Positions 34,705-34,908 of a stretch of DNA of 64,000 nucleotides are shown here, piece by piece. The translations under genes and the position numbers were made by a program. The notes beneath the pieces were generated by a model, which saw only the letters and a program-made list of their open reading frames with translations, was not told the DNA's origin and did no database searches. The stretch's first letter is position 1. Each line of letters starts with the position of its first letter. This stretch comes from an uncultured Candidatus Saccharibacteria bacterium (GTDB lineage: Bacteria; Patescibacteriota; Minisyncoccia; Phycocordibacterales; PALSA-1337): NCBI GenBank assembly GCA_964542675.1, contig CAZIUH010000002.1:98-64097 (forward strand). The letters run 5' to 3'.

Positions 34705-34908
34705 AGAAGCCTGATGAATATGTTTTATCATGTCCGAGTGTTTTTCCAGAGTGACGAACGACTTGCATTTCAAAAAAATTAACTCCGTACATGTCCGAGA
34801 GGAGTTAATTTTTTATGAAAACGCAGGAGTGAGGAGACGACAAAGTGAGAACTATCTCTGTATACTCTGGATACGCAGGACATGATAAAACATATTCATC
34901 AGGCTTCT
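34705..34908. repeat. MITE-like element: 31-bp perfect terminal inverted repeats flanking about 140 bp that contains a bidirectional terminator hairpin
   Basis: AGAAGCCTGATGAATATGTTTTATCATGTCC (34706-34736) is the exact reverse complement of 34878-34908. Inner hairpin AAAAAAATTAACTCC...GGAGTTAATTTTTT at 34771-34817. Confidence 0.7.
34771..34817 (-). terminator. bidirectional rho-independent terminator downstream of rplB
   Basis: 10-bp stem AATTAACTCC/GGAGTTAATT flanked by A7 and T6. Confidence 0.6.

Follow-up and report, generated by a model that had tools for sequence, protein, structure and literature searches.

Downstream of rplB, the window (the whole stretch of DNA analysed here, 64 kb long) carries an element of 204 bp in which two perfectly complementary arms of 31 nt enclose a unique core with what is predicted to be a bidirectional intrinsic terminator. 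The element was found once in the data searched, is absent from the relatives sampled, and lies at a gene junction that is new in this lineage. Our preferred reading, put forward tentatively, is that of a single-copy terminator/insulator cassette, specific to this lineage, at an operon boundary that was newly created, the one separating the rplB unit from an inserted block of genes. It gives the impression of a one-off marker for a boundary where the gene order was recently rearranged.

A search of the window for repeats showed the two arms to be complementary at 31 of 31 positions and to stand 142 nt apart, which bears out the exact 31-bp arms around about 140 bp given in the preliminary description. 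With up to three mismatches allowed, the arm 31-mer had no sites in the 64 kb other than these two, and none was expected from 100 shuffles. The nested inverted repeats that had also been claimed for the interior were recovered in one place, as a perfect 14-nt inverted repeat (AAAAAATTAACTCC/GGAGTTAATTTTTT; 34773-34786 and 34801-34814) with a loop of 14 nt; in the remainder of the core the claim did not hold, the best inverted match there being an 8-mer, TCCAGAGT, a match that 111 of 500 shuffles also produced. The inner hairpin has a weak direct repeat on its two sides, GAGTGACGAACGAC and GAGTGAGGAGACGAC, which 11 of 500 shuffles equalled. That the whole 204 bp could be a decayed long palindrome was rejected, as the core beyond the inner hairpin has no significant self-complementarity; the element consists of the arms plus a unique core. 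Two matches of 10 nt were also set aside, namely, TTTCAAAAAAT in the flank (34909-34919) and the directly repeated CATGTCCGAG (34729 and 34790); by our estimate, they are of a size that chance produces in 800 nt of A+T-rich sequence. The 236-nt stretch holding the element folds with a predicted energy of -90.2 kcal/mol as the - strand and -98.5 kcal/mol as the + strand, with z values of -11 to -12.

The identical element, in the same orientation, was present in six contigs that cover it in full and come from different samples, four of them ENA MEGAHIT assemblies and two JGI assemblies. A seventh, partial contig from Logan agrees with the element over the part that it covers and starts one base inside an arm; a break at this place is expected, because a k=31 assembler meets a 31-nt inverted repeat there. 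Since the six full-length assemblies come from different samples and agree, an assembly artefact is ruled out. Chance and artefact are both excluded as the source of the inverted repeat, which is real and statistically striking. The contigs of the same species are 100% identical over 20 kb, and so they hold no information on inversion, indels, covariation, or selection. The features of the region are listed in Table 1, together with two further long inverted repeats of the window.

Table 1. Coordinates of the element, of its neighbours, and of two other long inverted repeats in the 64-kb window
Feature	Position	Strand	Description
Near-perfect inverted repeat	5248-5394		41-nt arms, 1 mismatch, 65-nt spacer; between the stop of a PLD-like gene and infC
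csaA-like tRNA-binding-domain gene	34065..34535	-	PF01588 (tRNA_bind); 156 aa from the ATG of public gene calls
Candidate leaderless 25-codon ORF, MLDFIIKTTKAVIDYIFIKVIGATQ	34569..34646	-	Between the promoter and csaA, outside the inverted repeat; predicted
Putative extended -10 promoter, TGCTATAAT	34654..34662	-	42 nt downstream of the element; would open the next transcription unit
Left arm of inverted repeat, AGAAGCCTGATGAATATGTTTTATCATGTCC	34705..34735	.	31 nt; distal 3' arm on the - strand, present only in read-through RNA
Core	34736..34877	.	142 nt of unique sequence; the inner hairpin is its sole palindromic part
Bidirectional intrinsic-terminator hairpin (predicted)	34772..34814	.	A7, TTAACTCC, 14-nt loop, GGAGTTAA, T6
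Right arm of inverted repeat	34878..34908	.	31 nt; first arm to be transcribed on the - strand, from 14 nt past the rplB stop codon
Spacer between rplB stop codon (34922-34924) and element	34909..34921	-	13 nt
rplB (ribosomal protein L2, 283 aa)	34922..35773	-	Pfam Ribosomal_L2; its transcript enters the element
Near-perfect inverted repeat	56050-56139		32-nt arms, 1 mismatch, 26-nt spacer; between tpiA and pgk

The core hairpin presents what defines an intrinsic terminator, namely, a stable stem-loop followed by a U-run after the end of a gene, and it is the only such structure between rplB and the next promoter. The inner hairpin folds at -22.5 kcal/mol on the - strand, where it is followed by a U7 tail, and at -23.8 kcal/mol on the + strand, with a U6 tail (z of about -5.4); the U7 of the - strand runs from 34778 down to 34772, about 150 nt past the rplB stop. 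A terminator at 27434-27473, where the SWIB and VanY genes converge, has the same design and the same energy. Judged by sequence and fold, the inner hairpin is thus predicted to be an ordinary bidirectional intrinsic terminator, in agreement with the A7-stem-T6 structure noted earlier inside the arms. The arms stand 37 and 63 nt away from it. In the predicted fold of the RNA extending from the rplB stop to U7, the terminator hairpin is retained and the first arm folds on itself. Because RNA ending at U7 still forms the terminator hairpin, rplB transcripts should end before the second arm is reached.

The position assigned to the element from the start, between rplB and a csaA-like gene, was confirmed by Pfam matches of both neighbours (Ribosomal_L2 and PF01588). 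With the rplB stop codon 13 nt before it and the putative promoter 42 nt after it, the element fills the gap between two transcription units. The promoter TGCTATAAT, at 34662-34654, is followed after 7 nt by the ATG of the 25-codon ORF. Against an expectation of 1.3, the window has six sites of the motif TGCTATAAW, a number that none of 100 shuffles reached, and all six sites lie upstream of a gene and in the orientation of that gene. An ATG follows after 6-7 nt at four of the six sites and likewise at three looser TGnTATAAT sites; the arrangement of TGnTATAAT, 6-7 nt, and ATG was seen at 4133, 13728, 22268, 32269, 34654, 56044, and 56930, and the genes that start in this way include those for a PLD-like protein, a T4SS-coupling-like protein, a D12 methyltransferase, HlyD, pgk, and tpiA. 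This distribution suggests that TGnTATAAT is the usual extended -10 promoter of the genome and that it gives rise to leaderless mRNAs as the norm. The 25-aa candidate product of the ORF, MLDFIIKTTKAVIDYIFIKVIGATQ, is hydrophobic, and a small hairpin whose tail is rich in T (34582-34566) overlaps the 3' end of the ORF; the ORF could encode a small protein or a leader peptide.

The closest matches to the L2 protein of the contig carry Patescibacteria names of the Paceibacteria/Taylorbacteria-like kind, and on this sequence the host is placed as a Paceibacteria-type CPR bacterium. Identity of L2 to the relatives sampled was 83-90%, the closest one outside the species reaching 90%. In these relatives (loci L003, L004, L006, L008, and L028-L030 and the P0002 contig), the gene after rplB is convergent to it, and rpsS comes next. 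The convergent gene is usually a small histidine kinase gene (hisK) and otherwise another small gene, and in L028, the closest relative, it lies only 3 nt from rplB. A long inverted repeat after rplB was found in none of them. The csaA-like gene of the relatives belongs to a compact, tightly packed RuvX-csaA-VTT-PilM cluster, and the rplB-csaA junction is absent among the relatives reached through L2 as well as those reached through CsaA.

The order in the window is L4-L23-L2, the element, the promoter, csaA-like, DEAD helicase, HlyD, ABC, and MacB, followed by hisK on the opposite strand, SWIB, VanY, and then S19-L22-S3. A block of ~6.2 kb (roughly 28688-34921) lies between rplB and hisK and was seen, among the relatives sampled, in this lineage only; the csaA-like gene is the first gene of this block, and the element is the edge of the block on the rplB side. 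Given the rplB|hisK order and the other context of csaA in the relatives, the rplB|csaA junction and the element with it are new in this lineage. As the whole junction differs (rplB|hisK in the relatives versus rplB|csaA here), no empty site can be aligned. The absence of the element from the relatives fits a recent insertion and a recent local origin equally well.

The ribosomal-protein cluster of the window (about 17000-40000) is unusually broken up by foreign genes. An MFS transporter gene stands between L3 and L4, the csaA-DEAD-efflux block with hisK, SWIB, and VanY stands between L2 and S19, genes for a D12 methyltransferase and an EcoRI-like nuclease stand between L16 and L14, and one for a PIF1-like helicase stands between L5 and S8. 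In the relatives the cluster is mostly intact save for the hisK insertion after L2.

We propose that the block comprising the csaA-like gene, the DEAD helicase gene, and the HlyD-ABC-MacB efflux genes came to lie between rplB and hisK, the convergent gene that ancestrally adjoined rplB, and that the element may serve the boundary so created. RNA polymerase moving past rplB would transcribe the first arm, then 63 nt of the core, and then the 14-bp stem with U7, so that transcription would be expected to stop near 34772-34778, ~150 nt after the rplB stop and ahead of the second arm. Among the transcripts, read-through RNA alone would hold both arms, and in it, or in single-stranded DNA, these could pair into a perfect 31-bp duplex around the terminator. 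Such a duplex might act as a second roadblock and would be a plausible substrate for a double-strand-specific RNase, which would give the arms a fail-safe role, the back-up function being to keep rplB transcription from the csaA promoter 42 nt on. Termination does not explain the perfection of the arms, because terminated transcripts lack the second arm and terminators need no 31-bp arms. The simplest account of this perfection is a recent origin of the arms, either by a local inverted duplication of 31 nt in the course of the rearrangement or by a one-off insertion. Speaking against the cassette is the finding that the predicted fold of the + strand is slightly more stable than that of the transcribed - strand, and the core consequently shows no sign of optimisation as sense-strand RNA.

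The alternative that carries the most weight is a mobile one. The preliminary description had likened the element to a MITE or an IS remnant. MITEs are defined as elements of 50-800 bp with terminal inverted repeats (TIRs) of at least 10-15 bp and a target-site duplication (TSD) of 2-10 bp, lacking a transposase and forming a repeat family (PMC11602168). In size and TIRs the element falls within this definition, at 204 bp with perfect 31-bp arms, a unique, non-palindromic core, and no ORF with a homologue. A TSD was not found: the flanks read ...GCCAGTA on one side and ATTTTTTG on the other, and no direct repeat of 2-10 nt adjoins the arms at boundary insets of 0-3, which disposes of the AGTA|TATT flanks suggested earlier as such a duplication. 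Neither the search for the 31-mer with up to three mismatches nor a short-word blastn of the intergenic region detected a further copy or half-copy in the window or the fetched loci, and a Pfam scan of the 52 major ORFs across the 64 kb revealed no transposase or recombinase families.

Searches of public collections gave the same picture. A 20-mer scan of JGI metagenome contigs, a collection that evidently does not include the JGI contigs carrying the element, returned no true copy and three single-arm matches of 20-24 nt in unrelated sequence, which on a rough estimate is about as many as chance would give for a 20-mer. One of the three, an exact match of 24 nt to the outer part of the arm, lies inside a phage-like coding sequence (...EKPDEYVLCAIDKD...) of Ga0256826_1042062 (L011, 1640-1663); it was judged to be due to chance and not a copy, as the likeness ends after 24 nt, of which the scan demanded 20, and there is no partner arm. 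In the GTDB representative genomes, a 21-mer scan gave 0 matches. A gapped 11+11 pattern matched there four times, in Paenibacillus, Bradyrhizobium, an archaeon, and an alphaproteobacterium, and these were rejected as copies because only the ~11-12 terminal nucleotides that the pattern demanded are common to them and the element. The sequence from Paenibacillus algorifonticola (NZ_KQ040778.1; L014, 2587-2764) is a nested palindrome of 178 bp that is bounded by perfect arms of 20 nt, GTAGAAGCCTGATGGAAAAG, and contains two inner inverted repeats; having only the terminal 12 nt in common with the rplB-side element, about as much as the pattern required, it may represent a separate repeat element of Paenibacillus. 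An 18-mer scan of IMG/VR gave one chance match and no true copy, a blastn search of plasmids and phages gave no match to the element, and the six-frame peptides of the element matched none of 5.8 billion protein clusters. A search of the literature for MITEs or long intergenic inverted repeats in Patescibacteria/CPR yielded nothing relevant.

The single copy holds for the 64 kb plus unrelated public data, and with no TSD, no further copy in the data searched, and no transposase nearby, the earlier classification finds no support. Three outcomes had been named in advance as ones that together would speak for a structural element and against a MITE: a single copy, no TSD, and conservation in relatives. 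The first two were obtained, in the window and the public collections, and the third was not, the element being absent from the relatives. A solo or low-copy MITE or an IS-end remnant could have brought its own terminator when it inserted after rplB, its partner copies and transposase lying elsewhere in the genome, of which the window is only a part; the lack of the element in all the relatives sampled and its location at a rearranged junction would suit such an insertion. Weighing this against the missing TSD, the lack of a second copy in 64 kb, the chance-level matches in the JGI, GTDB, and IMG/VR data, and the failure to find a plasmid, phage, protein, or transposase match, we consider the MITE reading unsupported rather than refuted, and on balance unlikely.

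The remaining readings treat the arms as a switch, as the stem of an RNA, or as sites in the DNA itself, and each meets obstacles in the same data. Invertons are shorter than 300 bases in more than 75% of cases (PMC11602134), and the element resembles known invertons in its size, architecture, and perfect inverted repeats; the arms would then be recombinase crossover sites that flip the 142-bp core, and with it a weak promoter-like site, ACGACA-18-TATACT (34837-34866, + strand), the only one in the core, from an orientation antisense to rplB to one directed towards csaA. This site, however, matches at 9 of 12 positions, which is the shuffle level (three found versus 2.5 expected), and does not have the TGnTATAAT form, and apart from it no orientation-dependent functional element was found inside the core. 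The terminator is symmetrical, so that flipping would leave termination unchanged, and the csaA promoter lies outside the element. No Phage_integrase, Resolvase, or Recombinase match occurs among the 52 ORFs, and the six full assemblies have one orientation, the sole break at the element being that in the k=31 Logan contig. We hold an inverton to be highly improbable. A structured noncoding RNA gene of ~200 nt with a 31-bp closing stem (6S-like or another regulatory RNA), or a small RNA derived from the 3' untranslated region, would account for the very stable fold on either strand and for the intergenic site beside a highly expressed operon, yet the central terminator would truncate the transcript before the stem could close, no promoter of the type used by this genome lies upstream on either strand, and the arms pair by Watson-Crick pairs throughout, with no G-U pair or bulge, which is atypical of RNA genes. 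Rfam 15 gave no match at the gathering threshold (with E values of up to 10 admitted, the best match had 25.3 bits against a gathering score of 97), and a tRNA/tmRNA scan of the window returned only the tmRNA at 3183-3547. With the absence from relatives added, an RNA gene has hardly any credit with us.

A role at the DNA level would see in the arms paired protein-binding sites, or else a hairpin or cruciform that forms when the DNA is single-stranded or supercoiled and influences how the junction is replicated or recombined. Complementarity that is perfect and strand symmetric favours this, as does the consideration that terminated RNAs never hold both arms; on the other side, the sequence is unique in the window and does not recur as the sites of a regulon would, and no candidate binding protein was identified. 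We regard such a role as very improbable. A spacer of 142 nt strongly disfavours cruciform extrusion, and for this reason a cruciform-forming regulatory structure in double-stranded DNA, an option raised in the preliminary description, is unlikely. Among all these possibilities the terminator/insulator cassette stays our working interpretation.

Two other long hairpins of the window (Table 1) share a layout with the rplB-side element, that of a gene stop, a hairpin, and a TGCTATAAW promoter, and their sequences are likewise unique. The repeat at 5248-5394 is followed after 30 nt by TGCTATAAA, and the end of that at 56050-56139 overlaps TGCTATAAT. On the - strand, the one mismatched position of either repeat would form a G-U pair. 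Neither hairpin is followed by a U-run, and hence the class, if it is one, is not simply made up of terminators; the 26-nt spacer of the repeat at 56050-56139 is, moreover, too small for an invertible promoter. Three elements of unique sequence in 64 kb argue against a single MITE family and for either a process that generates inverted duplications where genes adjoin or an insulating role under selection. In a genome of leaderless mRNAs, such junction hairpins might be made by the rearrangement itself or be recruited as insulators just upstream of TGCTATAAT promoters. That the three form an undescribed class of CPR junction hairpins, or alternatively that the rplB-side one is the first inverton of Patescibacteria or the founding copy of a MITE, appears to us rather improbable.

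A genuinely repeated family is present in the window in the form of TGAATTA / TAATTCA heptamer inverted repeats, which differ in this respect from the rplB-side element. They were seen at 3554-3622, 21579-21647, and 60920-61035, all intergenic and directly upstream of the tmRNA gene, rplN, and a pilin-like gene, respectively, and may be a regulatory or promoter-associated motif.

If the cassette interpretation holds, the element would illustrate, on a modest scale, the way in which a streamlined CPR genome re-establishes the limits of its transcription units: inserted genes split a conserved ribosomal operon, and at the boundary so formed a terminator wrapped in a long perfect hairpin stands directly before a new promoter. 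The observation would gain weight if the layout of stop, long hairpin, and leaderless promoter proved to be general in Patescibacteria, or if reads showed inversion of the core and thereby phase variation, for which, to our knowledge, there is no published case from this group. Being an orphan without a family, the element is of limited general significance.

Several known systems resemble the element in part. With invertons such as fimS, the Bacteroides capsule promoters, and cwpV and flgB of Clostridioides difficile, it has in common a length below 300 bp, perfect inverted repeats, and an intergenic location, and switches of the cwpV type act through a terminator; it differs from them in that a recombinase was not found nearby, its internal promoter-like site is unconvincing, its terminator is symmetrical, and the assemblies all show a single orientation. 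REPINs and BIMEs also consist of two inverted units, and each arm of the element has a small internal hairpin in the predicted fold. None of the other traits of REPINs was seen here, these being a smaller length, a high G+C content, a copy number in the tens to hundreds, and an association with a RAYT transposase.

[quoted passage not shown] Like the MITEs ERIC and RUP, CREEs are short intergenic elements in which terminal inverted repeats of ~26-31 bp enclose a core, and they adjoin genes and are cotranscribed with them, a trait that the element shares by its layout. In RNA their arms can pair, and RNase III can bind or cut them there; CREEs can also supply promoters or terminators (PMC2649163, PMC2229807). 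CREEs are, however, known for many copies per genome, a conserved core, a TA target duplication, and an IHF site (in part from PMC2649163), whereas our element has one copy in the data searched, no duplication, no family, and no relatives that carry it; on these data it is not a member of the Correia family or of any other repeat family. With bidirectional intrinsic terminators the likeness lies in the core hairpin, with its A-tract, G-C-containing stem, and T-tract and with a stem plus U-run on both strands, and the difference lies in the further enclosing 31-bp perfect inverted repeat, which ordinary terminators of this type do not have. The core, by its sequence, thus appears to belong to an ordinary class of bidirectional terminators, and what is new in this lineage is the element as a whole, together with the rplB|csaA junction at which it stands.
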